The translations under genes and the position numbers were made by a program. A DNA stretch of 64,000 nucleotides from an uncultured Acidiferrobacteraceae bacterium (lineage in GTDB: Bacteria; Pseudomonadota; Gammaproteobacteria; Arenicellales; UBA868), in the NCBI GenBank assembly GCA_964630665.1, contig CAZVVN010000006.1:1-64000 (forward strand), in the 5' to 3' direction. Below the pieces are notes generated by a model that saw only the letters and a list, made by a program, of their open reading frames with translations, did no database searches and had not been told where the DNA came from. Shown piece by piece: positions 47,308-63,872 of the stretch (its first letter is position 1; each line of letters starts with the position of its first letter).

Positions 47308-47590
47308 CTCAAGACTACATTCATATCTCTTAGAACGGGATTAGTATTCGTTTCAGTGCCGCACTCGCAGAAGTAGAGTTTGCTGGGATCGGATGAACAC
47401 AATGGACCTTGCAAATCACTTTTCAATAAGGATCAATCTACCTTATCTCTTTCAAGAAGATCTCCGCTGATCCTATGTAATAATGCTGTATCGTTCTCCA
47501 TGGCTCACGGGTTATTCGACCGTATCGACATAGGCAAAGCTCTTGAATTCACCGTCGACTGCGCTACCATTGCTGCAGAGACAATACGTT

Positions 47591-48370
47591 ATGAAACTTG
47601 ACAAGGACCAGCTGGAACAATTTCACACAGAAGGTTTTCTGTTCCTGCCCGAATGCTTCTCTATGGCCGAATCAAACGCTCTGCTGGACGAGGCACACAA
47701 AGTCTATCAACTGGACCGACCCGAGGTCGTGCAAGAAGCCAGTGGCGTGGCGCGAACGGCGTTTGCAGCCCACACCTACAACGACGCTTTTGGCAGGCTC
47801 GGTGCCCACCCTCGTTTAATTGAACCGGTAGTCCAAATTCTGGGTGAAGAGGTCTACATGCACCAGTACAAGGTCAATGCCAAAGCCGCCTTTGACGGAG
47901 AAGTCTGGCAGTGGCACCAGGACTTCGGCACCTGGCACAGAGACGACGAAATGCCGGAACCGCGGGCCATGAACATCGCGGTTTACCTCGACGATGTGAC
48001 GGCCGCCAATGGGCCACTGCTGTTCATTCCCGGCAGCCATATGGACGGGACCCTGCCCGCAGGACACGACATCGAGACGACGTCCTACCCGCTGTGGACC
48101 CTGGACCGGGCCACAGTCACTCGACTGGCAACCGCAGGTGGAATCGAAGCGCCGGTCGGCAAAGCGGGTTCAGTTGTGCTGTTTCACGGCAACCTGGTCC
48201 ACGCAAGCCCACCCAACATCAGCCCCTTTGGACGCACGATCGTCTACCTCAGCCTTTGTGCCATTTCCAACCACATCCGGCGCTACAAGCGACCCGAATA
48301 CATCGCCCACCGCGATTTCAGGCCAATCACGCCACTGGCCGATGACTGCCTGTCCGAACTGGCTGCCTGA
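47591..48370 (+). CDS. PhyH-family Fe(II)/2-oxoglutarate dioxygenase, ectoine hydroxylase (EctD)-like with diverged signature
   Basis: EEVYMHQYKVNAKAAFDGEVWQWHQDFGTWHRDDEMPEPRAMNIAVYLDDVTAANGPLLFIPGSH parallels the EctD signature region (F-x-W-H-S-D-F-E-T-W-H-x-E-D-G-M-P ... PGSH) but has several substitutions. The His-x-Asp...His triad context is present. The ORF-track TTG start at 47543 is rejected in favour of the ATG at 47591. Confidence 0.7.
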   Translation: MKLDKDQLEQFHTEGFLFLPECFSMAESNALLDEAHKVYQLDRPEVVQEASGVARTAFAAHTYNDAFGRLGAHPRLIEPVVQILGEEVYMHQYKVNAKAAFDGEVWQWHQDFGTWHRDDEMPEPRAMNIAVYLDDVTAANGPLLFIPGSHMDGTLPAGHDIETTSYPLWTLDRATVTRLATAGGIEAPVGKAGSVVLFHGNLVHASPPNISPFGRTIVYLSLCAISNHIRRYKRPEYIAHRDFRPITPLADDCLSELAA

Positions 48371-48471: not shown

Positions 48472-49659
48472 TCAGGTCAGCTTCTCCAGGAAGAAAGTGG
48501 TCATGGCACCTTTGTTCTTGAGGTCGGTCCAACCTCGCTCGACAACCTCCGCGGACCGATCCAGAAACGCCCGACTTGCCTCGGAGATGTGCACCTTGCC
48601 AGCCTCGCCGCTCGCTTCCATACGAGCCGCAATATTGACCGCATCGCCCCACACATCGAAAGTCCCACCGGAATAGCCCGCGATCACCGGCCCGGTGTGT
48701 ATCCCAACCCGAATCGGCCATTCCGGCTTGCCCAGTGTCCTGTGCTGTATATTGCTTCCTTCAACGAACTGCACCAGATCAAGCGCCGCCGCGCATGTAT
48801 CTCGAATGTGTGTCGGGCGCCCTTCCGGTACCCCGCCGACACACATGTAGGCATCACCGATGGTTTTCACCTTCTTGAGACGGTGTTTTGCCGTGATCTG
48901 ATCAAAACCCTTAAAGAAAGTATTCAAGGTGTCGAGTAATTCACCGGGCTGGATCTGTTCGACCAGACGAGTGAAGCCGACAAAATCAGTAAACATGATA
49001 CTTGCCGAGGAGAAGTACTCCCCTTTGGCATCAGTGCCAGTATCAGCCTCTGAGTCGTTCTCACCGGCAACGCGTCGTGCAGTCCCATCGCCTTGCTCGA
49101 GCAGGGTGACCACCTGGTCCGATAATAGTCTCAATCCTTCCTTCTGGCCGTGAACCAGCTTCGCAGGCTCGAAGTCGACCACACACAACGTACCTAGCGC
49201 GTACCCCCGACTGCTGACCAGAGGGGTCCCGGCATAGAATCGGATTCCCGAAGCAGATGGCATGTTCTGAAAATTCCGGGTGCGCTCGTCCTCGTCGATA
49301 TCCTCAATGATCAACTGTTCCCCTGGAGTGGCAAGCACATACTGGCAGATGCTGGTATCCCGCGGTGTCTGTTTCAAGCGCTCTTTGGTCTCGACATCAA
49401 TCCCGCTGCTCAACTTGCAGAACTGGCTGTCATTACTCAAGATATTGATGACGCTGACTGGGCACTCGGTGAGGTAACTGGCGATCTGAGTCACGTTGTT
49501 GAAACGTCGATCGCTTTCGAAATCCTTTTCCACAAGACCTAGTCGTTTGAGCTCGTCAAGCCGTTGTTCTTCATCTGGCGGGTTCGATACCGGGACGATC
49601 CCGGCTTCCAGGCCCTGCGCCTTGGCTTGTTCAAATATCTCCTGCTTGACGGCATCCAT
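48472..49659 (-). CDS. GAF domain-containing class III adenylate/guanylate cyclase
   Basis: 395 aa. The N-terminal GAF-like region is EQRLDELKRLGLVE...GTLCVVDFEP. The C-terminal cyclase homology domain motifs are FTDFVGFT, KTIGDAYMCVGG, VGIHTGPVIAG and VWGDAVNIAARMEASG. Confidence 0.75.
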   Translation of the reverse strand: MDAVKQEIFEQAKAQGLEAGIVPVSNPPDEEQRLDELKRLGLVEKDFESDRRFNNVTQIASYLTECPVSVINILSNDSQFCKLSSGIDVETKERLKQTPRDTSICQYVLATPGEQLIIEDIDEDERTRNFQNMPSASGIRFYAGTPLVSSRGYALGTLCVVDFEPAKLVHGQKEGLRLLSDQVVTLLEQGDGTARRVAGENDSEADTGTDAKGEYFSSASIMFTDFVGFTRLVEQIQPGELLDTLNTFFKGFDQITAKHRLKKVKTIGDAYMCVGGVPEGRPTHIRDTCAAALDLVQFVEGSNIQHRTLGKPEWPIRVGIHTGPVIAGYSGGTFDVWGDAVNIAARMEASGEAGKVHISEASRAFLDRSAEVVERGWTDLKNKGAMTTFFLEKLT

Positions 49660-49819
49660 GGATAAGCTTCTGATTTTTAACGATTGTTCAGTCCGGGCGC
49701 GGGGCGCTGACGTCAGATCGACACCTGATTCCTACTGAATAGAATACTATACTGGACTATTATGACCCTAGCTATGACGGGTGGAGATACTCAGGCCCGT
49801 CAGTACGAGGTCTCTTTTC

Positions 49820-51052
49820 ATGAGCCAGAATCTGACAACCAACGGCGATCGCTTTCTCGCTGATCTCGACGCTCTGCGGGAATTCGGCAAACAAGGCAGC
49901 GGAGTGGTCCGGCCCGCGTTCTCACCTCCTGATATCGATTCGCGGCGTTGGCTTACCGGCAAATTTGAAGCCTGTGGGTTGAGGCCCCGGTGGGACCCAG
50001 CGGCCAACCTGTTCGGAATGCCCCCGCAGTCCGGCAAACCGATCCTGATCGGATCACACTCCGACACCCAGCCCGAGGGCGGCTGGCTCGATGGCGCTTA
50101 TGGGGTCATTCTAGCCCTCGAAGTGGCGCGAACTTGTCAGGAAGCCGGTGGACCACCGGTCGCCGTGGTCTCATTTCAGGATGAAGAAAGTGCCTTCATG
50201 CCCATGACTGGCAGCTGCTTCTTCAGTGGTAACTTGTCCCGCGACACACTGTATGACCTGAGCAACGCTGCCGGACAACGTTACGGTGACCTCGCCAGTG
50301 CTCTGCCGGAACTCGAGCAACCTGAGTCACTGGATCCCGGCTTGTTCAGTGCTTTCCTGGAAGCCCACATCGAACAGGGCCCGGTTCTGGACCAGGCGGG
50401 TGAGATCATCGGGGTGGTTGAGACCATTGTCGGCAGTCGCCAGTTTGAAGTCACGATCACAGGCCAGCAGAACCACGCTGGGACGACGCCAATGGCCCTG
50501 CGACAGGACGCAGTCACTGGCTTTGCCGCTTTCATAACCAAGCTGGAAGAACGGTTCACAGAAATTGCAACACCACGTTCGGTCTGGACCATCGGCCGGG
50601 TGGACGTACGCCCCAATGCGCCTTCCATCGTTCCGGGAGCGCTGAACTGCTCCGTGCAGATGCGCGACGGCTCCCTCTCGCAACTGGATGCCATGTGCGA
50701 GATAACTCAGAAGGTGGCCGCCCAGACAGCAGCAGAAAGAAACCTCAACATTTCGCTGTTAGAGACAAAAGCTGTCGACCCGGTTGACATGGATGACCAG
50801 ATCATCGAGGCCTTCTGTGATGCTGCCGGATCAAATGCACCTGGTGCCTGGCGGCTTATGCCCTCCGGTGCGCTGCACGACGCCATGAACCTTGCGCCGC
50901 GAATCCCGACAGGGATGATGTTCGTGCCTTCGATCGGTGGCGTCAGCCACGCCTTCGAAGAGGACACCGAAAGAGAACACCTGGTTGCCGGTGTTCAGGT
51001 CATGGCCGATGCGGTCACCCGGCTCGCGGATCAACTGGGCGATAGCGGCTAG
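49820..51052 (+). CDS. M20-family Zn amidohydrolase: N-carbamoyl-L-amino-acid hydrolase / allantoate amidohydrolase type
   Basis: ATG at 49820 with GAGG upstream. The family traits read off the translation are [19 protein letters not shown] (the His/Asp metal-binding region of AmaB/AllC-like enzymes) and the insertion domain around NHAGTTPM. Its stop CTAG is shared with the convergent acyl-CoA synthetase stop. Confidence 0.75.
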
Positions 51053-52743
51053 GCTGTACTCGTCTCTTCCAGGTCGAGTTCTGAGACCATCTTCTCGCGC
51101 ATGAGAAACTTCTGCGGCTTACCCGTCACCGTCATTGGAAATTCCGTAACCGTGCGGACATATCGGGGAACCTTGAAATGCGCGATCTGGCCTTCGCAGT
51201 GGGTACGGACATCTTCGAGCGACACCTGCGCGCCCTGAGCTGGAACAATCCAGGCACAGATCTCTTCACCGTATTTCTCATCCGGAATTCCAAAAACCTG
51301 AACGTCCTGGATTCCGGGATGACCGAGTAGAAACTCCTCGATTTCGCGGGGGTAGACGTTCTCCCCACCGCGGATCAACATGTCTTTGACCCGCCCGACG
51401 ATGTTGCAGTAGCCCTCCGAATCAATCGTCGCGAGATCACCAGTGTGCATCCAACCATCACTGTCGATGGATTTAGCGGTTTGTTCCGGGTCCTCCCAAT
51501 ATTCCCGCATGACCAGATAACCACGGGTATGAAGTTCCCCTTGTTGCCCGGATGCCACGGTCTCACCCGATTCATTCACCACCTTGGCTTCGACATGCGG
51601 GTGAATCCGTCCAACCGTTGAGACGCGCCGCTCGATAGGATCGTCGACGGCACTCTGGAAAGATACCGGACTGGTCTCGGTCATGCCGTAAGCGATGGTC
51701 ATTTCCTCCAGGTGCATCTCGGAAACCACCCGCTTCATCAGTTCGATCGGACAGGGTGCGCCAGCCATAATACCGGTACGAAGAGTGCGCAGGTCGAACT
51801 GGCTGAAATCGGGCAAATTGACCATCGCACTGAACATTGTGGGAACACCATGCACGCCGGTACAACGTTCCTGACTCAGGGTCTGAAGCGTCTGCAAAGC
51901 ATCAAACCCCTCTCCGGGAAACACCATGGTACTTCCAGCTGTCACACAGGCGAGGTTACCCAGCACCATGCCGAAGCAGTGATAAAGTGGCACCGGTATG
52001 CACAATCGATCCTGGTGAGTCAGCCGCATGCAGTCTGCGACGAACCTGGCATTGTTGACGATATTCCGGTGGGTCAGTGTGGCGGCCTTGGGCGAACCGG
52101 TCGTACCGGAGGTGAACTGCAGGTTGATCGCGTCATCCGGAACCAGCGTAGCACCGATCGCATCCAGCCGCGCACGCTGTCCGGGCCCGCCTCGTGTCAT
52201 CACGTCACTGAAGCAGAGCATGCCCGCTACTGGAGCATCACCGACCTGGATCACGCTCTTCAGCGACGGAAGATTCTTGGATTCCAGCTGACCGGGCTGA
52301 CAGCGGCCAAGTTCCGGCGCAATATCCTGCAGCATTTCCAGGTACTGACTGGTCTTGAAGGAAACAGCGCTGATCAGCGCCTTGACGCCGGCCTTGGCCA
52401 GTGCGTATTGCAGCTCTGCCCGCCGATAGGCCGGGTTGATGTTGACCAGTATGGTGCCAATCCGCGCAGTGGCAAACTGGGCAAGGACCCACTCTGGCCG
52501 ATTGGGGGCCCAGATACCAACCCTGTCTCCTTTGTAGACACCTATAGCCAGCAGGCCAGCAGCAAGCTCATCGACCTTTTTCGAGAGCTGATCCCAAGTC
52601 CAGCGCTCTCCGGATTCGGAGAAAACACAGGCGTCACGGCTACCGTGTTGAGCCACGGTCCGGGCAAGAAAATCCGGGATCGTCACGGCCTCCAGTGTGG
52701 GCGTCTCCGGACCCTTGACATGCGAGTGGACTAAGCCTGCCAT
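51049..52743 (-). CDS. AMP-forming acyl-CoA synthetase / fatty-acid-CoA ligase
   Basis: The ATG at 52743 (MAGLVHS) avoids overlap with the upstream gene. The AMP-binding motif is region [12 protein letters not shown]. Other motifs are YGMTETSPV and the GWMHTGDLA...[20 protein letters not shown]-terminal domain. Confidence 0.8.
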
Positions 52744-52810
52744 CAGAGGTTCTCTGCTAGACATGAATCTGGTCGGACACATCCGGGACAACTCTGAGTC
52801 GGACGCGTTG

Positions 52811-55153
52811 TCACATCTGCCTCCAGTCACCCAGCTGCTCAAACGCATGAGCGGCCTGGTAGATAGTGGACTCACCGTAATGCCGGCTGATCAACATCAT
52901 CCCGACCGGCAACCCCTCTCCCATGCCACACGGAACAGACATGGCCGGATGGCCAGTGACGTCGAACGGGCTGGTATTTGCAAGCATCTCGAAAGCTCTC
53001 TGGCAGTACAGCGCCAGGGGGGCATCGGGCGGCGGCAGGGGGGTGGCCTTCATCGGCAACGTTGGCATCATCAGTAGGTCGCACTGCTCCAGTGTCGCAT
53101 TGTAGGTCTCTTTCAGTTTACGACCTAGGTTCTGGGCCTTAGCATAGAAATGCCCGCGGTAATGCCGGAGGAAATACTCTCCGAGAAACATGCTGACCTT
53201 GAGGGTATCGGACAACTCGTCGGCCCGATTAAGCCAGTTTGAATGATGATCGAGCAGACTGGTCGTATAGAGGCCCTTCCAGCCGGTGCCGAAACCGTTG
53301 CCCTTCATCATCTGGTTGGTCAGGCCTTCGAGCGCGATAGGTGTCCAGATGGCGGCGCCTTCATTATGCATCGGGATGGAGATGTCCTGGACATCAGCAC
53401 CGAGTTCACGCAGCCGGTCCGCGGCCGATCGCACTTTCGCGTCTACATCCGTCTCAGACTCGGGCCGACCAAAGCCTTCCTGTACCACCCCGATCTTCAG
53501 CCCCCGCACACCGCGACCAAGCGCCGAGGTGTAATGATCGACTCTGGGCGCATATTGTCTCGGGTCCAATCCATCTTCACCTGCGATCACTTCCAAGAGC
53601 AGCGCATTATCGGCAACGTTCTGTGTCATAGGACCAGTGTGATCGATCGTGGTCTCGATCGGCATCACACCCGTGTAGGGAACCAGCCCATGCGTCGGCT
53701 TCAAGCCGTAGCAACCGCAGTACGACGCGGGCATGCGGATTGACCCGCCCTGATCCCCTCCCATGGCCATGTCGACCTGCCCAGAAGCAACCAGGGCACC
53801 CGAGCCCGAGGACGAGCCCCCGGCTGAATACCCCATCCTGTGCGGATTGTGGCAGGGACCGGTCGCATTCGTGTGGCTACCACCTGAGAGACAGAAGTAC
53901 TCGCAGTGGGCTTTACCGACAATCGTACCACCGGCGTCGAGAATTCGTGTTACTACGGTCGCGTCCACATCCGGAATGTAGCCCTCCAGCGTAGACGCAC
54001 CATTCATCATGGGCACACCGGCCAGACTGATGTTGTCTTTAAGCGCCACTGTTTTTCCGGCAAGGGGTCCGCGTGGTGCACCTTTGACCTCACACTTGAC
54101 GTACCACGCATTGAGGGGGTTTTCTTCCGCGGAAGGCCGGTATCCCGGTGTTCTGGGATAATCCACCGTAGGCAGGTAATCGGGCATCCCATCGATCAGG
54201 TCATAGACCTTAATCGTGTCCTCCATGACCTCCAGGAACTCTGCTATCCGTTCGTCCGACAAGTGCATCCCCAGATCCAGGGTAATTTCCTTGAGTTGTT
54301 CGTGGGTCGGTCTCTTGACAGTCATATAGTCAAACCTCTTGTGGCTGGCCAACGCAGTCGCTATGGGCTGGCCTGCAGTTGCTGTGGTTTCGTTCTTAGG
54401 TATCAGTTCAGTTACGTGCTTGGGCATTGCATTGCTGGACCCAAAACCGACAAACTCCTCAATCAGTGAAGAATCCGTTGTATGCCCGTCACCTATTTCA
54501 CCGGTGATATCGCCTTTCTGCAACAGCAGGACCCGGTCCGACAGCGCCGTGATGAACTCAAGATTCTGTTCAACGAGCACGATACTCAATCCGTGCTCGG
54601 TATTCAGGCGTTTAAGCAGGTCAATAATACCCTCGACAATGGACGGTTGAATCCCTTCTGTCGGCTCATCCAAGAGTACCAGGTCCGGCTTGCTGATTAG
54701 GCAGCGAGCGATCGCCAGTATCTGCTGTTCCCCGCCGCTTAGGGCAGCCCCCGACCGATCGAGCAACGGTTGAAGCTGAGGGAAAGTCTGCACGATGGCT
54801 TCAATGGCCTCATGCTCTTCCTCACCATGCTCCACGACTCCCATCCTTAGGTTATCGTAGACCGAGAGCTGGGGAAAGATGCCTCTCCCCTGGGGCACAT
54901 ACCCCAACCCCAGGCGGGAGCGCTCATAAGCCGGCTCATCGGAAATATCCATTCCGTCGAATTCGATTCGACCCGAGGTCGCCGGCACGATCCCCATTAG
55001 CGTCTTCAGCAGAGTAGTCTTACCCATACCATTGTGCCCCAGCACACCGACGATCTGACCTTCAGCCACAGACAGATCTATGCCGTGAAGTATTGGCACT
55101 CGCCCATAACCCGCGTGCAGGTCCCGAACATTCAGCATCGGCGAGTCACTCAT
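52811..55153 (-). CDS. Fusion protein: N-terminal LivF-type ABC ATPase (about 237 aa) fused in-frame to a C-terminal amidase-signature enzyme (about 540 aa)
   Basis: A single uninterrupted 780-aa ORF. The N-terminus carries Walker [13 protein letters not shown], signature [15 protein letters not shown] and Walker [14 protein letters not shown] (LivF/UrtE-like). From about residue 239 it carries the amidase signature [47 protein letters not shown]. There is no stop codon between the two domains. Confidence 0.75.
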
Positions 55154-55881
55154 GCACTTTTCCGCTGGCCAAGGTAGACCTCCCGGACGCGCTCGTCCGA
55201 CGACACCTCGTCCATAGCACCTTCAGTCAGGATTCGGCCCTGGTGAAACACCGTGACCTTGCGCGCAATCATGCGGATGAACTGCATGTCGTGCTCGACA
55301 ACAATCATCGTTGCACTTCGATTTATTTCCTGGATGATTTCTGCAGTCCGAACAACCTCATCCTGAGTCATTCCAGCGGTCGGTTCATCGAGTATCACCA
55401 ACCAGGGTTCGCCCGCCAGCACCATTCCCAGTTCCACCAGTTGCCGCTGCCCGTGAGCGAGTGATCCCAGCTGAATTTTCCGTACCTTCCCCAGTTCCAG
55501 TCGGTCGATAACTTCCGTCGTGATCACCCGTGCCCGCTTGACACTGGCGGACTGGCTGGCCGAGAGCCAGATGTTCTCTTCGACATCCAGACCGTCGAAT
55601 ACATTCGGCACCTGGGTCTTGATCCCGACCCCCATTCTCGCAACCTGGTGGGATTCGCTGCCGGTGACATTGAAATCTCGTATCACAACATCACCGGCCG
55701 TCGGGCGCAACTGGGCGGTCAGGCATTTGAAAAAAGTGCTCTTGCCGGCGCCGTTGGGCCCAATTAGACAACGTAACTCATTCTCTCTCAGGGAAAAATC
55801 GACCCGATCAACAGCCACGACACCGCCGAAATGCATCGACAGCCCTCGGGTTTCGAGCACCACGTTACTCCTCAAGGCCAC
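55150..55881 (-). CDS. ABC transporter ATP-binding protein, LivG/UrtD-like
   Basis: Walker [13 protein letters not shown], signature [15 protein letters not shown] and Walker [12 protein letters not shown]. Its stop overlaps the fusion gene's start (ATGA). Confidence 0.85.
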
Positions 55882-56926
55882 CCTCCTTTACCCTTGTTCG
55901 ACCGCGTCGCCTAAATTTGCGGGCTGAGCGCGCCGTCATCCGTCGTGATCGTCTTCTGTCCCACATCTGCACCACCGACGGCACGATCCCCCTGGGCACC
56001 ACCAGGACAAAAATGATCAGAACCAACCCAAGGAACAAGTTGATGTTCACGACAGACTGCTGGCCAAGGAATGATGTCAGGTAAAACAAGACCAGGGCCC
56101 CGAAAATCGGCCCGATCAATGTGCCGCGACCGCCGATGATCACCCAGATAATCGCAAGTGCCGCGTTGTAGAGGTTGAATACATCCGGGGTAATTCGTCC
56201 AATCGAGTTGGCGAACATTATTCCCCCGAGGCCGGCGATGGCACCACCGACAGTGAACATGCAAAGTTTGTACAGGCGAACGTCATAGCCCAGTAGTTCT
56301 GTGCGCACTTCATTTTCCCGGATCGACACCGACACCCGCCCGAAATGCGATTTCGTCAGCCATACGCAGAGAAAATACGATCCCAGAAGGGCCACCATTG
56401 CGACATAGAACACCTGTTCTGGGAACAGGAACTGGTTGGCGTCCCAGGGAATGTTAATCGGCGGCACATTGATTCCGTTGAATCCTCCCAGCTTGGCAAT
56501 ACCAATCTTGTATTCGGGACCTGATGTCCGACGAATCACGCTGTACAGAATGAGTGTCAAGGTCAGGGTGATCACGGCCAAGTAAACATCGCTCAGGCGG
56601 CCGTAGAACATGAAATAGCCCAGGATCGCCGCCACGGCCGCCGCCACCAGAATTGCAATAAGTATTGCGCCGCTGCTGCCGCCGAAATTCAGTGCTGCAA
56701 TCGCGTAGGCATAACCACCAATCCCAAAAAACGCCGTCTGGCCAAAACACAGAATGCCGCCGTAACCCCAGATCAAGCCCAGGCTCAAGGCAAGTATTGC
56801 CAGGCTGACCGCGGTGGTCAGGCTGATCACCGCAAAGAGATCGAGGCTCTGGGGCGCAGCGAACAACACGACCAAGCCGACGATCCCAATCGACACGAGA
56901 GCGTTGGTCTCTCTGGTTCGTTTCAC
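55865..56926 (-). CDS. ABC transporter permease, LivM/UrtC-like
   Basis: 353 aa, multi-TM, branched-chain-amino-acid-type permease architecture. It overlaps the neighbouring genes by a few nt. Confidence 0.8.
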   Translation of the reverse strand: MKRTRETNALVSIGIVGLVVLFAAPQSLDLFAVISLTTAVSLAILALSLGLIWGYGGILCFGQTAFFGIGGYAYAIAALNFGGSSGAILIAILVAAAVAAILGYFMFYGRLSDVYLAVITLTLTLILYSVIRRTSGPEYKIGIAKLGGFNGINVPPINIPWDANQFLFPEQVFYVAMVALLGSYFLCVWLTKSHFGRVSVSIRENEVRTELLGYDVRLYKLCMFTVGGAIAGLGGIMFANSIGRITPDVFNLYNAALAIIWVIIGGRGTLIGPIFGALVLFYLTSFLGQQSVVNINLFLGLVLIIFVLVVPRGIVPSVVQMWDRRRSRRMTARSARKFRRRGRTRVKEGGLEE

Positions 56927-57792
56927 AGGCTTCGCTTAAAGAAACGACCAGTGATGCCCTGTGGCATCAAACGCAGCAAGACGATGGCCAACAGGAGCAG
57001 TGCCACCTCACCCATGGTCGGGCCAATCACGAAGCTGACGATACCGTTGATACCCCCCAGTAGGATAGATGCCGAGGCTGTTCCGGCAAGAATTGCAGTG
57101 CCACCGGAGATAACGGTGATGAAGGCCTTACCGATGTAGATCGCTCCGATGGTTGGCAGAATACCAGTGATTGGTGCCAGCAGGCCTCCAGCGAGGCCTG
57201 ATAGGGCAGCACCGATCCCGAAGGTTGTCGAGTACACGCGCTGGGTGCTGACTCCCAGCGCTGCAGCCATGTCTGCAGCCTGCATGGTGCCGCGGGCCAC
57301 CAGGCCCAGCTTGGTGTAGCGCAGCAGAAAGTACAGCAGGACGACCAGGAGAATCGCCACCAGGATGAGAAACAACTCATACCCACTCGAGCTGAATTCC
57401 CCGATGGTAATCGGACCGAACGGTGGCGCAATTGTTGTGGCCGTTTGCGCTCCAAAGATTGTCGTGATCAAGCCGATAAAGAACAAGCTCAACCCCCAGG
57501 TGGCCAGCAGGGTATCGACCATCCGGCCGTACAGAAAACGGATCAGAACCCACTCAACAATCAGTCCAATGATCCCGACGATCAGCGGCGCCAGGATGAA
57601 CATCGCAATCCAAATATTGACGCCACCGTTGGTGGCCACAATGACCGTGTACCCGCCCAGCATTAGGAACTCCCCATGGGCAAGGTTGATCACCCGCATC
57701 ATCCCGAAAATAACCGCCAACCCGATGCTGATCAGCACCAGGTTGGCGATGCCGTAGACGATTTGAAGCGCCAGAGCGGCTACAAGATCCAC
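56923..57792 (-). CDS. ABC transporter permease, LivH/UrtB-like
   Basis: 289 aa, multi-TM. The conserved N-terminal INLAHGEFLMLGGY is typical of LivH-type permeases. Confidence 0.8.
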   Translation of the reverse strand: MDLVAALALQIVYGIANLVLISIGLAVIFGMMRVINLAHGEFLMLGGYTVIVATNGGVNIWIAMFILAPLIVGIIGLIVEWVLIRFLYGRMVDTLLATWGLSLFFIGLITTIFGAQTATTIAPPFGPITIGEFSSSGYELFLILVAILLVVLLYFLLRYTKLGLVARGTMQAADMAAALGVSTQRVYSTTFGIGAALSGLAGGLLAPITGILPTIGAIYIGKAFITVISGGTAILAGTASASILLGGINGIVSFVIGPTMGEVALLLLAIVLLRLMPQGITGRFFKRSL

Positions 57793-57829: not shown

Positions 57830-59083
57830 CTAGTCGATGCCTGCTGCCTTCAAACCGTTTTCAAAGTAGAAGGTCGACTGGTTCGGCGTGCTGATCAGAT
57901 CACAAACCAGCTGAGTGTCGGTCGGCTGCTGCTGTTCGTAGGTCTGGATAATGTTGAACTTCTGGTTCTGCAGCTCCGCGAGATACACGTTCTGAACCGC
58001 ATGATGCGTCTGCGGGTCGATCGAGATGTTGCCACTCGGGCCGGCAAAACTCGTCGGGGCATCCAGCGCTTCGATCACCTTCATCCGCTCGGCGGTGCCA
58101 GCAGCTTTGACGGCCTCGGCCCACAGATAGATTCCTTCGTACTGCCGGGCGGCCAGTTCGTTTAGGTACGGCGCGTCGGCGCCAAATCGGGCCTTAAACC
58201 GTTCCACGAACGCCTTGTTGTCGGCCGACTGGATCTCCTCGAAGTAACTGTACGCGACGATCATGCCGTCACCTTCCTCGGCAGAAATCATCAGATGCTC
58301 ATTGCCCACACCAAAAGTGGTGGAAGCAATGGGAACACTCTTGCTCATGCCGGCGGCAGCATACTGCCGGTAAAACGAGACGTGCGCGCCGCCGACCAGA
58401 GCGGACATCACCATGTCCGGTTTTGCCGCCTGGATCTTCTTGATGGTCGGCCCGAAGTTGGTGACATCGAGGGGGAAGAACTCTGTCTCCACTGGATCGC
58501 CGCCATTGTCACGAACATACTTCTGTACCCAATCCGCTGTGATGTGGCCATAGTTGTAGTCGGCCGCAATGATGTAGACCTTCTTGCCCCACTTGTTCAT
58601 GGTGTACGGCACCAGTTTTTCGACGGTCTGGCCCGGGGTCGAACCTGTACAGTAGTTGTTGGTGTCACAGACACCGCCTTCGTATAGCGTGTTGTAGAAA
58701 TAGAGAGTCTGGTAGCGGCTCAGTAACGGCCTGATCGATTCTCTTGAAGCCGATGTGATACCTGCCTGGACCACGTCCACACGATCGCTGGTCGCTGCCT
58801 TGGTCGCGTACTGCGTGTAAAACTGGATGGTCGACTGAGGATCGTAGACCGTAAGATCTACCTGCTTGCCGAGCAGGCCGCCCGCTGCGTTGATTTCCTC
58901 TACTGCCAGGTGACTCGCATCCACCATCGGCCGGCCATAGATATCAAGCCCACCGGTCTGGTCCAGTATCACTGCCATCTTCAGTTCGTCGGCAGCTTGG
59001 GCGCGGCCAATAAAAGCCGGTGCAGCGACAGCCGCGGCGGCAGCCGACGTACTTTTGAGAAAGTTTCTGCGATTGATTGACAT
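57830..59083 (-). CDS. Periplasmic substrate-binding protein of a Liv/Urt/Fmd-type ABC importer (type I PBP) with Tat signal
   Basis: 417 aa. The N-terminal RRNFLKSTSAAAAAVAAPAFIGRAQA is a Tat signal. The body resembles the UrtA/FmdD/AmiC-like amide/urea-binding family. AAAGGAGAAATAG lies upstream of the ATG. Confidence 0.8.
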   Translation of the reverse strand: MSINRRNFLKSTSAAAAAVAAPAFIGRAQAADELKMAVILDQTGGLDIYGRPMVDASHLAVEEINAAGGLLGKQVDLTVYDPQSTIQFYTQYATKAATSDRVDVVQAGITSASRESIRPLLSRYQTLYFYNTLYEGGVCDTNNYCTGSTPGQTVEKLVPYTMNKWGKKVYIIAADYNYGHITADWVQKYVRDNGGDPVETEFFPLDVTNFGPTIKKIQAAKPDMVMSALVGGAHVSFYRQYAAAGMSKSVPIASTTFGVGNEHLMISAEEGDGMIVAYSYFEEIQSADNKAFVERFKARFGADAPYLNELAARQYEGIYLWAEAVKAAGTAERMKVIEALDAPTSFAGPSGNISIDPQTHHAVQNVYLAELQNQKFNIIQTYEQQQPTDTQLVCDLISTPNQSTFYFENGLKAAGID

Positions 59084-59178: not shown

Positions 59179-60789
59179 TTACTCCTCGCTGGGTTCCCCA
59201 GAAGCCTGATCATCCGATGATTCAGACACCTGATCAGAAATACCTTTGATGCCATCACCTATGTTGACTCCAATTTCCTCACCCAGTTTTTTCACGGCAG
59301 GCAGCTGCAGTGCCATCGACAGAACACCGTCGACGACCTGATTCACCACTGCCTTGTCGGCACTACTGTCCTGCCCTCCTCCACCACCTGAGTTGCCAAA
59401 CCCGGTGACATGATTGATCCGTATGCTGTCGATTTTCTCTGCCGGTTTCACCATGCTGTCGACCACGTCCGGCAGAATCTCCAGCTTGCGCATATGCAGC
59501 TTCATCTCGATCAGATCATCACTTTGACTGTTTTCGGAAGCGATCAGCGCAGCTTCTCCTTCTGCTCGGGCCAGCAGTTCCGAACGCTGAGCATCAGCCC
59601 GGGTCTTTGTGGCTTCCGCCTCTGCTTTTGCCATCGCCATGAGGGTTCCGGTCTCACTGCCAACACGCGTTTCATCGACTTCGGCCTGCTCGCGAGCCCG
59701 GATCATCGCCAACGCTCGCTCGCGCTCGGCAGCGGCTACCTCGCGGGTCGTCTCAAGATCTTCTTTTGCCTTGATCTCTTCGGAACGGGCCTGCTCGACA
59801 GCAACTTGGGCTCTGGCGACTTCCGCTTCCTGCGCGGCAATCACGATGTCCCGTTCCAAGCGGCGCAGTTCAGAGGACTGGGTCGCCTCGAGCTCGGCCT
59901 TACGGACTTCCCGCCCGGTCTGTATTTCCTTGGCCTTGACCTCCTTGTCTTTTTCGATTCGGGCGAATTCACGCCGTTGCTCGGATTCGGACTGTTCCTC
60001 GGCAATCGCAGCATCGCTCGCAGTGCGCTCACGCTCGATGTTCAACTGCTGCCGAATCTGCGCTTCTTCCTCCTCCTGATCAATATTCAAACGCTTCTTG
60101 GTCGCGTCTAGCTTGCTCATCCGAACTGCTACATCCGCATCGGCCTCGATCACGGCGCGTTCTTTCTTGCTGTTTGCAACGATTTCCGCCAGGCGCCGCA
60201 GGCCGATTGCATTGAATGCGTTGTTTTCGTCAAGTGTGTGGAAAGGCGCCTGGTCCAGTCGGGTCAGCGAAACCGATTCCAGTAACAGACCGTTCTGTAA
60301 AAGATTGGGTTTGAGGATCTCTGTGATCTGTCCGACATACCTGCCCCGCTCGTTCTGCAGTTCATCCATCGTATAGTTAGCGGCCACGGATAGAATCGCA
60401 TCGACCAGTTTGCCTTCAAGGGTCTCGGCAAGGTCTTCCGAACGAAAGGTCTTCCCGGCCAAGGCCTGAGCTGCGGTCGCGACACCCGAATCGCTGGGGT
60501 CCACCCGAACGTAGAACTCGACCGTGGCATCGACTCGCAAACGGTCTACAGTGATCACAGATTTCTCAGCGTTGCGAACGACCTCGAGCCGGGTCGTTTT
60601 CATGTTGACTTCCGATACACGGTGAAGGAACGGAAGCGCCAGAAACCCCCCGTCCGTTATGATTTTCTGACCCCCCAGACCGGTTCGGATCAGCGCAATT
60701 TCGCGAGATGCTTTCCGGTAGAAGCGGTTCAGCAGAATGATGATCACCACAAGGGCAACAATCAGTACGATCAACCAGACCCAGTACAT
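59179..60789 (-). CDS. Flotillin / SPFH (band 7) family protein (YqiK/FloT-like), 536 aa
   Basis: N-terminal TM (YWVWLIVLIVALVVIIILL), then the SPFH domain (IALIRTGLGGQKIITDGG...). An E/A/R-rich coiled coil follows, then a Gly-rich acidic C-terminus. It is a paralog of 25510..28095. Confidence 0.8.
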   Translation of the reverse strand: MYWVWLIVLIVALVVIIILLNRFYRKASREIALIRTGLGGQKIITDGGFLALPFLHRVSEVNMKTTRLEVVRNAEKSVITVDRLRVDATVEFYVRVDPSDSGVATAAQALAGKTFRSEDLAETLEGKLVDAILSVAANYTMDELQNERGRYVGQITEILKPNLLQNGLLLESVSLTRLDQAPFHTLDENNAFNAIGLRRLAEIVANSKKERAVIEADADVAVRMSKLDATKKRLNIDQEEEEAQIRQQLNIERERTASDAAIAEEQSESEQRREFARIEKDKEVKAKEIQTGREVRKAELEATQSSELRRLERDIVIAAQEAEVARAQVAVEQARSEEIKAKEDLETTREVAAAERERALAMIRAREQAEVDETRVGSETGTLMAMAKAEAEATKTRADAQRSELLARAEGEAALIASENSQSDDLIEMKLHMRKLEILPDVVDSMVKPAEKIDSIRINHVTGFGNSGGGGGQDSSADKAVVNQVVDGVLSMALQLPAVKKLGEEIGVNIGDGIKGISDQVSESSDDQASGEPSEE

Positions 60790-61146: not shown

Positions 61147-62079
61147 ATGAGCTTGGCAGTTGACGATCTTCTTCAGAGCAATCATCCAGTCTTTTTGGAC
61201 GGGGGTATCGGTACCGAATTGCAACGCCTGGGCGCACCGATGGACCACGAAGCGTGGTGCGCTGTTGCACTGGAGACCCATCCTGACCTGGTCCGACAGG
61301 TTCACCGCTCCTATATCGAGTCCGGTGCCGACATCATTACGGTCAACACCTACGCGACAACCCGCCAGGCGCTCAAGAGTGCTGGCATGGAAGAACAGTT
61401 TACCCGCTGGAACATCCGCGCAGTTCAGATTGCCAGGGAGACGCTGGAGGAATCGGCGCCTGAACGAGATATCCTGATTGCCGGGTCGGTTTCGACCTTT
61501 GGAAATTTCAACCGGTTCAGCGACGCTGAGCTGGAACCCTATTTCCATGAGCAGGCCGAGATCCTAGTTGAGAACGGCGTCGATCTAGTCATCCTCGAGA
61601 CGCTTTCATCCCGGGTGTCAACGATTGTCACCGCCCTGAATGCGCTGGCTGATTTCGACCTGCCCGTGTGGGTCGCTATCAGCGGCGTTCAGGACCGAAA
61701 CTCAGGTGCACTTTATTTGGGCGTAGAAGAAAGCCCTGCCCATAGCGATTCGGTCACTACCCACGAGCCCTTCGCCGATGCGATCCAGAAGATCATGGTC
61801 GAAGGCGGCTCGGCACTGCTGCTCATGCACTCCCCCGTTAATGTCTGCAGGCCTGGCCTTGAAGTGATGAGCGAGAATTATTCGGGGGTTCTGGGTGCTT
61901 ACCCCAATGCCGGCTACTGGCAACGTCCCGACTGGGCCTTTGTCGACCAGATCACTCCCGATGACTACCTTAAAGCCGCCGGGGACTGGATCGACGCCGG
62001 CGCGAAAATCGTCGGCGGCTGCTGCGGCATCGGCCCGGCGCACATCAGCGCGCTTTCGGCCGAGCTCCGCGGCAGATAG
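61147..62079 (+). CDS. Homocysteine S-methyltransferase family protein (MmuM/BHMT-like Hcy-binding domain)
   Basis: 310 aa. N-terminal FLDGGIGTELQR, then IITVNTYATT and the C-terminal Zn-binding IVGGCCGIGPAHI motif. Confidence 0.8.
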   Translation: MSLAVDDLLQSNHPVFLDGGIGTELQRLGAPMDHEAWCAVALETHPDLVRQVHRSYIESGADIITVNTYATTRQALKSAGMEEQFTRWNIRAVQIARETLEESAPERDILIAGSVSTFGNFNRFSDAELEPYFHEQAEILVENGVDLVILETLSSRVSTIVTALNALADFDLPVWVAISGVQDRNSGALYLGVEESPAHSDSVTTHEPFADAIQKIMVEGGSALLLMHSPVNVCRPGLEVMSENYSGVLGAYPNAGYWQRPDWAFVDQITPDDYLKAAGDWIDAGAKIVGGCCGIGPAHISALSAELRGR

Positions 62080-62101: not shown

Positions 62102-62815
62102 CTAGATTTTCTTTTTCCTCACCACCCGCTTGAGCGGCGTCAGGTTGATCTCGTCAAAAACGGTCCCCGTACGGACATTCAGCGCAACGGACACGGCTTC
62201 GGCCACGTCTTCCGGCTCAATGACATTGGCAGGATCCGGGCCGGGCTCGAAGTCAAGCTGATCAAAAAACCGAGTTTGAACCATGCCGGGATTGACGATG
62301 GTGATTCTCACACCCGCGGCTGCACACTCTTCCCGGAGCGACTGGGCCAGCCCTCGTAAAGCAAACTTGGTTGCAGAGTAGACGGCACCGTATCGCCCTC
62401 CGGACAGGGCCGCCTCCGATCCCATCAGCACGATGTCGCCACCGCCATTGCGTTTTATCAGGGGCAGAAACGCTCGTACCACACAGACCTGGCTAGTGAA
62501 GTTGAGGTCGATGAGCGATCTGATGTCTGCGTAGGACATCTGCTCCAGGGAACCAAACCATCCGCTGCCCGCACAGCAGATCACAGCGCTGATCTGGGGA
62601 TGGCTGCGGGCCAGTGCGGTCAACCGATCGGGAAGTCGCTCAAGGTCTGCAAGGTCTATCGAAACCGGTTCGAAGCACGTGTCGGCGGTTGAGATTCCTC
62701 TGAGATCCCGGGCGACGCCGATCACACGCTCACCGTCTGCAAGAAGGCGCGTGCTGATGGCATGGCCGATACCGGCACTGGCTCCGGTCACGAGCAGCGT
62801 GCGGGGTTCAGTCAT
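62102..62815 (-). CDS. SDR-family short-chain dehydrogenase/reductase
   Basis: Rossmann motif LLVTGASAGIGHAI, and the catalytic region YSATKFALRGLAQSL (YxxxK). The start at ATG 62815 minimises overlap with the upstream gene. Confidence 0.8.
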   Translation of the reverse strand: MTEPRTLLVTGASAGIGHAISTRLLADGERVIGVARDLRGISTADTCFEPVSIDLADLERLPDRLTALARSHPQISAVICCAGSGWFGSLEQMSYADIRSLIDLNFTSQVCVVRAFLPLIKRNGGGDIVLMGSEAALSGGRYGAVYSATKFALRGLAQSLREECAAAGVRITIVNPGMVQTRFFDQLDFEPGPDPANVIEPEDVAEAVSVALNVRTGTVFDEINLTPLKRVVRKKKI

Positions 62816-63872
62816 CACCAGGTGCCGGACAGGGCGAGACGTCTCTATCACTACGATTTCCCGTTACGTTGGGCCGGGATTCCGGTGAACAGGAAAACAA
62901 CTTGCTCGGCGGCAGATAGCGGGACAGTTCGTTGGCACAGAACTCGATCATCTCGTATTCACGCGATTCGGCATAGGAAATCATTGTACCGCGGTCAGAA
63001 AATGGGCTGGCGAACAGTGGTTCCTCCGGGTAAAGACGGGCAACGTTGCGAAAGAATGTCTTCGGCATACGGAACGGACCAAGCGTTACCGAGTGGATGC
63101 TTTGTACGGAAAGGCTGCTGAACACCTCTGTAAAGAGCGCCCGATAACGCGCCTGATAAGTGGACTCAAACAGGATCGGATCGAAACGCAACCCGACCTG
63201 CCAGCCGCGCCTTGCCAATTTGGCCATCGCGTCGAGGCGTTTACTCACGGGGGGAGCCTTGTGTTCCAGCGCCGCCGCGGTATCAGTCGGGGTGAGGCTG
63301 AAAGCGACCACCACATTTTGCCGGGGTTCTGCCACTAGCAGCGGCCGGACCTGGGTGCTCTTGGTCCGTAACTCGATGTGGGCCCGTGGGTGACTGTTCA
63401 GCCAGACCAGCAACTCGCTCACAAACCCCGTAACCGGTTCCAACGCCAGGCTATCACAGTCATAGCCTGAGAAAAACCAGACGTCCTCGCCCGGATGCGC
63501 CTCGAGTTTGTCGGCCATACCGGTAAAGAACCGCTCGTAGTTCACAAAGACGACGTAGTGGGCGGAACGGTACATCCCCTGCAGGAAACAGTAGCGACAG
63601 TCGTAGATACAGTTCATCATGTGGGAGAAGTAGTAATTGTGTGCTCCGCCGATGCCGTAACCCGGGGGAGTCAACAACATTGTTTCACCAAATTTTTCTG
63701 CCAATATCAGGGACGGGCGAGATTTCTGCAGCCGGAAGTTCTGCGCTTTGGGATTGAAGACCTCGCCGTAGCGCTCGCAAATCACCTGGGTGACGTCTGG
63801 AAAGTGCGCCAAGATTCTTTGCGCACGCGCATCGTCCTCGAGCGCCTGTTCAACGTAGATCGTATTGATCAT
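62808..63872 (-). CDS. Spore photoproduct lyase-family radical SAM protein (SplB-like DNA photoproduct lyase)
   Basis: 354 aa. The radical SAM Cx3Cx2C motif is CIYDCRYCFLQ. The N-terminal MINTIYVEQALED... and overall length fit the SPL/DNA-repair-photolyase-like family. Confidence 0.65.
   Translation of the reverse strand: MINTIYVEQALEDDARAQRILAHFPDVTQVICERYGEVFNPKAQNFRLQKSRPSLILAEKFGETMLLTPPGYGIGGAHNYYFSHMMNCIYDCRYCFLQGMYRSAHYVVFVNYERFFTGMADKLEAHPGEDVWFFSGYDCDSLALEPVTGFVSELLVWLNSHPRAHIELRTKSTQVRPLLVAEPRQNVVVAFSLTPTDTAAALEHKAPPVSKRLDAMAKLARRGWQVGLRFDPILFESTYQARYRALFTEVFSSLSVQSIHSVTLGPFRMPKTFFRNVARLYPEEPLFASPFSDRGTMISYAESREYEMIEFCANELSRYLPPSKLFSCSPESRPNVTGNRSDRDVSPCPAPGDD

Follow-up and report, generated by a model that had tools for sequence, protein, structure and literature searches.

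The gene described here lies in a 64,000-nucleotide stretch of DNA from an uncultured Acidiferrobacteraceae bacterium (contig CAZVVN010000006.1; this whole stretch is referred to as the window), and its product, a single polypeptide of 780 residues, joins the second motor ATPase of a Urt-like ATP-binding cassette (ABC) importer to a complete amidase. We consider it probable that this fusion is selectively maintained and that it equips the importer with a tethered, catalytically competent amidase, which would serve the metabolic trapping of a carboxamide. The cassette in which the gene resides is accordingly likely, in our estimate, to import a small carboxamide, which the amidase, kept by its tether on the cytoplasmic side of the transporter, would then hydrolyse.

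A continuous reading frame for an importer ATPase and an amidase

The open reading frame (ORF) harbors two Pfam domains, ABC_tran (PF00005) at residues 22-165 (9.6e-34) and Amidase (PF01425) at residues 356-764 (4.7e-94). NCBIfam delimits the UrtE-like region to residues 7-233 and assigns residues 277-779 to PRK07235 (NF005565); the score is 820.8 bits, where 545 would suffice, and the match runs through positions 1-505 of the 506-position profile. Judged by these alignments, both partners are complete, and the ATPase is followed by a PRK07235-type amidase that lacks nothing at its N-terminus. Around the junction (~54,325-54,454) the fusion frame is the sole open frame and the remaining two are rich in stops. 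Together with the domain assignments this bears out what the first-pass annotation, made from the letters of the window alone, had proposed, namely a stop-free run from an ABC ATPase into a full amidase-signature (AS) enzyme.

The sequence motifs expected of both halves are intact. In the ATPase these are Walker A (G39-T46, of the form G39-x4-GKT46), Q88, the signature LSGGEQQ (138-144) and the Walker B stretch LLDEP (160-164, with D162-E163); in the amidase, they are GGSSSGSG (445-452) and the Ser-cisSer-Lys residues K372, S447 and S471. Apart from Q88, they had been predicted at least in outline, and all are invariant in an alignment of 24 fusion homologues, on which every statement about residue or column conservation within the fusion is based. 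One detail of the earlier prediction has to be corrected, in that the switch residue taken for the His of an H-loop is in fact Gln196 (in VEQN), which is invariant as well. Gln at this position is customary in LivF/UrtE-type subunits.

An indel near position 54,440, introduced by sequencing or assembly, could perceivably hide a stop codon or a frameshift and make two genes appear as one, and in more distant relatives the two domains are indeed encoded by two separate genes. Nevertheless, the chance that the fusion is an artefact of this kind is, to our minds, negligible. A protein homologue search covered 5.8 billion proteins, and the best 120 matches all contain PF00005 together with PF01425, measure 772-869 aa and are 66-98% identical to the fusion. 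They originate from independent samples and assemblers and from many independent contigs, several of them 1-8 Mb long, and their in-frame linkers are diverse in both length and sequence. In addition, a tblastn search of annotated plasmids recovered the continuous fused ORF from complete plasmid sequences of cultured isolates, namely Pseudosulfitobacter pseudonitzschiae and the two Sulfitobacter strains S. alexandrii and Sulfitobacter sp. THAF37. The same architecture is thus present in at least 120 database clusters and in complete isolate plasmids. Neither do the orthologues universally consist of two genes, a possibility raised together with the original prediction; in the nearest clade every member is fused, and split genes occur only in more distant relatives.

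A neighbor-joining tree was built from 45 amidase domains, 31 of them from fusions. All fused sequences form one clade in it, and the split forms and the forms in which the amidase gene comes first ("amidase-first") are basal; the bipartition between fused and non-fused sequences is recovered in 149 of 200 bootstraps. A tree of the nucleotide-binding domain (NBD) agrees with this in the fused clade and in its internal groups, although with weak support (78/200 bootstraps), as is to be expected from 235 residues. When 1.84 billion 50%-identity representatives were searched exhaustively with HMMER, P0121 (818 aa) was the only one to contain both domains in full, and fragments of it were retrieved as well, whereas nearly all other strong matches are stand-alone amidases of ~500 aa. 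Five further candidates for independent fusions (P0122, P0125, P0141, P0227 and P0267) were rejected; their N-termini are unrelated (OB-fold, HsdM, Myb) and involve no transporter. Since there is one clade and a single 50%-identity cluster, the sequence comparisons make a single origin of the ATPase~amidase fusion probable. Members of the fused clade come from many Alphaproteobacteria and from Acidiferrobacteraceae-like Gammaproteobacteria, with no reversion among the 31 sampled. The closest relative of the window is found in an Acidiferrobacteraceae metagenome-assembled genome (MAG; locus L001), with 88% identity and extended synteny, and in Sulfitobacter the fusion gene is plasmid-borne. The spread across Alpha- and Gammaproteobacteria and the plasmid location suggest that the cassette has probably moved horizontally.

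The linker and its descent from an intergenic spacer

Between the conserved EEFxGFG that closes the NBD and the YMTVxRPT that opens the amidase lies a linker that could not be aligned among the 24 homologues; it varies from 30 to 127 aa (median 50) and is rich in Ala (22%), Pro (17%) and Ser (12%). Mean column identity falls to 0.40 in this segment, compared with 0.80 in the NBD and 0.86 in the amidase. Even so, not one of the 633 linker codons from the 12 loci for which DNA is available is an in-frame stop, while the other two frames contain 9 and 8 stops. That a segment diverging so fast remains free of stops points to selection acting on covalent continuity, not on the linker sequence as such.

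The origin of the linker can be read from the split relatives. Among the related loci that we compared with the window (designated L001, L003 and so on), a scan of species-representative genomes revealed 12 more distant ones in which the urtE-like and amidase genes are adjacent and in the same order; these include loci of Rhizobium rhizogenes, Roseicella, Pseudomonas morbosilactucae and several alphaproteobacterial MAGs. In these, UrtE terminates 2-10 codons past EFVG, a spacer of 13-116 nt with a Shine-Dalgarno (SD) site follows, and the amidase starts at ATG-M[TS][VI]x[RK]PT. Such a layout implies that the linker of the fusions is a translated former intergenic spacer and that Met277 is the ancestral initiator of the amidase. 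The window linker, with 38 aa (114 nt), falls inside the range of the split-locus spacers.

If the ancestral start were still in use, the two halves of the fused ORF could function separately, with the free amidase arising by internal initiation at Met277 or by cleavage of the linker and with the tether as a near-neutral by-product. This would be consistent with the conservation of Met277 in at least 90% of the fusions, with the presence of an SD-like motif 6-13 nt upstream of it in 6 of the 9 fused loci with DNA, with the "ER" codons, which stand out as conserved from the rest of the linker and may mirror that motif, and with the fact that RhAmidase, an enzyme of the same type, acts as a soluble homodimer. 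In the window the motif reads AAGAGG and is either a relic or a still-active internal ribosome-binding site. However, Lys takes the place of Met in two sequences, and four fused loci lack an SD-like motif (L006, L009 and L012, and also L084). More importantly, the 633 diverging linker codons are free of stops where some 8-9 would be expected from the other frames, and the fused state persists across Alpha- and Gammaproteobacteria without having reverted in any of the 31 members. We therefore consider separate function of the two halves unlikely and favor the tethered amidase as the form on which selection acts.

The importer, its cassette and the probable substrate

The coordinates of the fusion, its parts and the associated genes are collected in Table 1.

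Table 1. Fusion gene, importer genes and other members of the cassette in the window
Feature	Position	Strand	Basis or remark
Flotillin-like membrane scaffold, 536 aa, N-terminal transmembrane anchor; first cassette gene	59179..60789	-	Pfam Flot 6.9e-35, Band_7 8.6e-14
Substrate-binding protein (SBP) exported by twin-arginine translocation (Tat), UrtA/AmiC fold	57830..59083	-	Peripla_BP_5 1.1e-80, Peripla_BP_6, TAT_signal
UrtB/LivH-like permease	56923..57792	-	BPD_transp_2 5.6e-29; UrtB models 203-241 bits, below cutoff
UrtC/LivM-like permease	55865..56926	-	BPD_transp_2 2.1e-35; UrtC models below cutoff
UrtD/LivG-like ATPase, unfused partner NBD	55150..55881	-	ABC_tran 1.3e-26, BCA_ABC_TP_C; UrtD model 252 bits
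Fusion ORF	52811..55153	-	780 aa, ATG start
UrtE/LivF-type NBD, residues 1-238, ending with conserved EEFxGFG	54440..55153	-	Pfam, NCBIfam, alignment, PDB 1JI0 4.9e-50
Linker, residues 239-276, Ala/Pro/Ser/Thr-rich, hypervariable	54326..54439	-	Alignment of 24 homologues
AAGAGG, SD-like	54335..54340	-	9 nt 5' of the Met277 codon
RhAmidase/PRK07235-type AS enzyme, residues 277-780 and stop, complete	52811..54325	-	NCBIfam, PDB 3A1K
Acyl-CoA synthetase (AMP-binding); last cassette gene	51049..52782	-	AMP-binding 2.6e-93; PRK12583 849.6 bits vs cutoff 832

Pfam and NCBIfam bear out the operon of an SBP, two permeases, a LivG/UrtD-like ATPase and the fusion that the first-pass annotation had outlined, and the order SBP/permease/permease/ATPase/ATPase is conserved in all related loci. 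The fusion is nonetheless not the last gene of the conserved unit, as had been stated for the operon; the acyl-CoA synthetase comes after it, and the unit opens with flotillin. The ATGA-type overlaps that were said to join the genes hold only for the junction of UrtD with the fusion; UrtB and UrtC share a GTGA overlap, UrtC and UrtD overlap by ~11-17 nt (the true start of the UrtD-like ATPase may be the TTG at 55875), and the SBP and UrtB genes are 37 nt apart. Within the coding region of the UrtB-like gene and close to the 5' end of that region (57713-57750, minus strand), a terminator scan marked an imperfect hairpin of 17 bp with a T-rich tract behind it; this is probably a coding coincidence, an internal attenuator being the alternative. 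The promoter scan found fewer promoter-like sites than in shuffled controls and none that was intergenic.

The predicted Tat signal of the SBP was confirmed by Pfam (TAT_signal, 27.9 bits vs cutoff 22.7), and the RR motif is kept in 20 of the 20 related loci checked (from the sets L001-L020 and L081-L085), fused and split alike. This conservation suggests, from the sequences, that the SBP family is exported in a folded state. Among solved structures the SBP is nearest to 8TG1 (6e-53), an unannotated structure that offers no hint of the ligand; urea-binding proteins follow with 1e-40 to 5e-45 and AmiC with 6e-25.

With respect to the substrate, the amidase half is the more telling one. It aligns end to end with RhAmidase of Rhodococcus sp. 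N-771 (3A1K/3A1I; 2e-141 for 3A1K, 9-498 to 9-500), with K96/S171/S195 of the latter corresponding to K372/S447/S471 of the fusion, so that both have the same Lys/Ser/Ser triad. The RhAmidase gene sits in a nitrile hydratase cluster and is not known to be linked to a transporter; no nitrile hydratase was found in the window. RhAmidase is a homodimer with an N-terminal helical domain that is unique to its subfamily (PMC11732141) and that the alignment with the fusion amidase takes in, and it is free and soluble, whereas the N-terminus of the fusion amidase is tethered to an ABC ATPase. Models of allophanate hydrolase gave 148-155 bits against cutoffs of 487-511, those of AtzE-family amidohydrolases ~193 bits against 426-461, and biuret hydrolase 6C62 matched in the core only (residues 356-564, 3e-44). 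Because the enzyme is of the RhAmidase type and its allophanate and AtzE scores lie far under the cutoffs, a small carboxamide is, on sequence grounds, the more likely substrate than a ureide. Of the "small amide or ureide" initially envisaged, the first part has thus gained in likelihood, also with regard to the downstream synthetase, and the second has lost.

A urea or ureide system deserves consideration all the same. According to this explanation urea, biuret, allophanate or a ureido acid would be imported and the amidase would be a ureide hydrolase. The importer indeed agrees with UrtABCDE (HAAT family, TC 3.A.1.4) in its five components and in the order of their genes, urea-binding proteins are among the nearest solved structures of the SBP, urea-transporter models are the best NCBIfam matches of all five importer proteins, and an M20 carbamoylase-family hydrolase is encoded nearby in the window. 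Every one of these Urt matches, however, stays below its equivalog cutoff (NCBIfam TIGR03407-03411 and the archaeal-type models): UrtA with 238.5 vs 492.75 (archaeal-type 365.1 vs 494.8), UrtB with 203.5 vs 250.3, UrtC with 182.7 vs 296.2, UrtD with 252.3 vs 304.1 and UrtE with 265.4 vs 285.8. The window system further differs from UrtABCDE in that its UrtE bears a 540-aa C-terminal enzyme extension and in that it is linked to an acyl-CoA synthetase, with no urease gene in the conserved seven-gene cassette. Such a synthetase would be pointless after the hydrolysis of urea or a ureide; for it to make sense, the product of the amidase must be a carboxylic acid. Finally, the M20 gene is retained only in the closest relative and lies outside the cassette. 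Taken together with the family scores of the amidase, this leaves a ureide system rather improbable, and a carboxamide remains our preferred substrate class.

There is precedent for such a pairing. In Pseudomonas veronii, amiE-fmdA-urtABCDE links a Urt-like importer to a short-chain amide hydrolase and amides serve as N/C source (PMC13209695), and FmdDEF-type operons likewise combine an importer of the Urt/Fmd type with an amide hydrolase. The amidases of these systems nevertheless belong to other families (FmdA to acetamidase/formamidase, AmiE to the nitrilase superfamily) and are separate proteins, while that of the window is an AS-family enzyme and is fused.

The importer is embedded in a cassette of seven co-directional genes, in the order flotillin, Tat-dependent SBP, permease, permease, ATPase, ATPase~amidase and acyl-CoA synthetase, which is present in every sufficiently flanked fused locus; the genes outside it vary between fused loci. 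In the window the flotillin gene is located 95 nt 5' of the SBP gene on the same strand, and it directly precedes the SBP gene in the fused loci L001, L003-L006, L009, L081-L083 and L084. The synthetase immediately follows the fusion in L001-L006, L009, L081-L083 and L084. Its start in the window is ambiguous, the longest ORF reaching to 52875 and overlapping the fusion by 65 nt, but ATG 52782, 52764 or 52743 are more plausible starts; no close characterised structure is available for it (best 8WEU, 3e-76, partial), hence no hint of its substrate.

The split operons (for example TMO_RS22805-22780 on pTM2 of Tistrella mobilis and the loci of Pseudomonas morbosilactucae, Roseicella frigidaeris and Rhizobium rhizogenes) possess the same Tat-dependent SBP, permeases and ATPases in the same order, together with an orthologous PRK07235-type amidase of 54-70% identity. 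They differ in that UrtE and the amidase are separate, each split locus having its spacer and ribosome-binding site, in that no flotillin gene adjoins any of the split loci examined, and in that no close synthetase homologue comes right after the amidase, the lone match in split loci being an ACS-like protein of 30% identity in L010. The restriction of flotillin and synthetase to the fused loci suggests that these two and the fusion have a common origin or were brought together in one assembly.

A divergent MarR regulator paired with a signal-less protein of the UrtA/AmiC fold occurs upstream in many relatives of all three architectures, and often in the split operons: in the fused loci L005, L006, L009, L082 and L084 (1674-3314), in the split loci L007, L015, L016 and L085 (2158-3834 and 14734-18398) and in the amidase-first loci L014 and L023. 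Tistrella mobilis has a further pair of this kind, adjacent to nthBA, the genes for nitrile hydratase. In Rhodococcus, amide-induced nitrile hydratase/amidase clusters are under the control of MarR-like and AmiC-like proteins, as with NhhD (MarR-like) and NhhC (AmiC-like) of the R. rhodochrous J1 nitrile hydratase cluster. Neither the window nor the relatives nearest to it (L001, L003, L004, L081 and L083) contain the pair, so that the connection with this type of regulation is seen in the family at large but not at the present locus.

Other genes of the window lie on either side of the cassette. The M20 hydantoinase/carbamoylase-family hydrolase (49781-51052, plus strand) is convergent with the synthetase, and both it and a PhyH-family dioxygenase (47543-48370, plus strand) are syntenic with L001 only (76-82% identity), outside the conserved cassette. 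A class III adenylate/guanylate cyclase (48472-49659, minus strand; Guanylate_cyc at 216-392) was considered as an associate of the cassette and dismissed, its proximity being probably coincidental: the cyclases encoded after the cassette in L083 are non-homologous to it at tblastn E 1e-10 and there is no recurrence elsewhere. Upstream of flotillin are a spore-photoproduct-lyase-like radical SAM protein (SPL/DUF1848; 62808-63872, minus strand) and, both syntenic with L001, an SDR (62102-62851, minus strand) and a homocysteine S-methyltransferase (61147-62079, plus strand).

Proposed mechanism and its implications

The model that we propose begins in an ancestor, probably an alphaproteobacterium, in which the stop codon of a urtE-like gene would have been lost, such that readthrough crossed a short spacer into the adjoining gene for a RhAmidase-type amidase and the spacer turned into a linker, now 30-127 aa long, that is flexible and evolves fast. 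The resulting importer would bear one amidase tethered at its cytoplasmic face. The Tat-exported SBP would capture a small, membrane-permeant carboxamide, the UrtBCDE-like core would pump it inward, and the tethered amidase would split it into ammonium and a carboxylate. Immediate hydrolysis could in this way prevent the back-diffusion of an uncharged solute, i.e. trap it metabolically, and the tether would fix a 1:1 stoichiometry and a high local concentration of the enzyme. The acyl-CoA synthetase would then activate the released acid, and the co-inherited flotillin may arrange the complexes in the membrane. An ABC importer that depends on flotillin for its function is already on record (PMC10147376). 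The sequences themselves establish the fusion, its descent from two neighboring genes, a single origin as the probable one, the intact motifs of both halves, the selection for an open linker and the seven-gene cassette; what we infer from this arrangement is the class of substrate, that the transported molecule is the one hydrolysed, the trapping rationale and any role of flotillin.

An amidase attached to an importer ATPase could alternatively act mainly as a regulatory or sensory module that gates transport by trans-inhibition, in response to the amount of substrate or product in the cytoplasm. Domains appended to the C-terminus of importer NBDs are as a rule regulatory, and the accessory domains of MalK, MetN, ModC and OpuAA, which are likewise C-terminal to the NBD, are small, non-catalytic, ligand-binding modules. 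The amidase occupies the same position. It is, however, a full enzyme of 504 aa, the catalytic triad and the AS signature of which are invariant and which constitutes the more conserved half of the fusion; its ancestor was a free-standing enzyme gene; the long, variable and disordered linker is unlike the compact domains that dimerise beneath NBDs; and the downstream synthetase implies a flux of product. A predominantly regulatory role is thus very unlikely, and we retain the catalytic one.

Several observations nevertheless weigh against our proposal of a tethered, carboxamide-trapping amidase. First, as all five importer proteins find their best, if sub-cutoff, NCBIfam match in a urea-transporter model, a urea-like substrate is possible, and there is no adjacent regulator in the window that would hint at the inducer. 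Second, the conserved Met277 and the SD-like motif in front of it may give rise to free amidase from an internal start as well. Third, the bootstrap support for a single origin in the sequence trees is moderate, not strong. Fourth, the AlphaFold2 model built from the 24-sequence alignment has a mean predicted local distance difference test (pLDDT) score of only 56.6, with the amidase half mostly <50, such that neither domain docking nor linker geometry can be read from it; the linker is its lowest-pLDDT stretch, which in so poor a model counts for little. Fifth, an importer with one UrtD and one UrtE subunit would carry one amidase, which may be at odds with the geometry of the homodimeric RhAmidase (PMC11732141).

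This last point could be turned into a bolder version of the model, to which we give only a small chance. Given one amidase per transporter and obligate homodimerisation of RhAmidase-type enzymes, the amidases of neighboring importers might dimerise via their linkers, and the cassette might encode a flotillin-scaffolded "transport metabolon" with a vectorial passage from amide to acid to acyl-CoA. If that were so, importers would be cross-linked into pairs or arrays and corralled by flotillin, which would amount to group translocation built on an ABC importer.

Urt/Fmd-type importers linked to amide hydrolases are already known, and so is RhAmidase itself. In contrast, the covalent ATPase~amidase fusion and the flotillin/synthetase cassette appear to be undescribed; we found no paper on either in the full-text literature, a scope that leaves out most subscription journals and is hence not proof. 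In public records, RefSeq/PGAP labels the fusions of 780-870 aa as "amidase" only (e.g. NZ_CP045377.1 38920-41301, WP_152467583.1), a label that hides a transporter subunit and makes the importers appear to be without their second ATPase. This constitutes a systematic annotation gap.

Taken together, we argue that the fusion is worth attention on several counts. It is rare for a catabolic enzyme and the motor subunit of an ABC importer to be covalently joined, and rare too is a bacterial flotillin that conserved synteny ties to one specific transporter. Since the system exists in fused and unfused form in related bacteria, it represents a natural experiment on the coupling of transport to metabolism, and strains of the Roseobacter group (Sulfitobacter) that can be cultured and are genetically tractable possess the fused form. 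The rationale it offers is a testable one, namely that small, uncharged, membrane-permeant nitrogen compounds, which would otherwise leak back, may be accumulated by virtue of their immediate hydrolysis at the site of entry.

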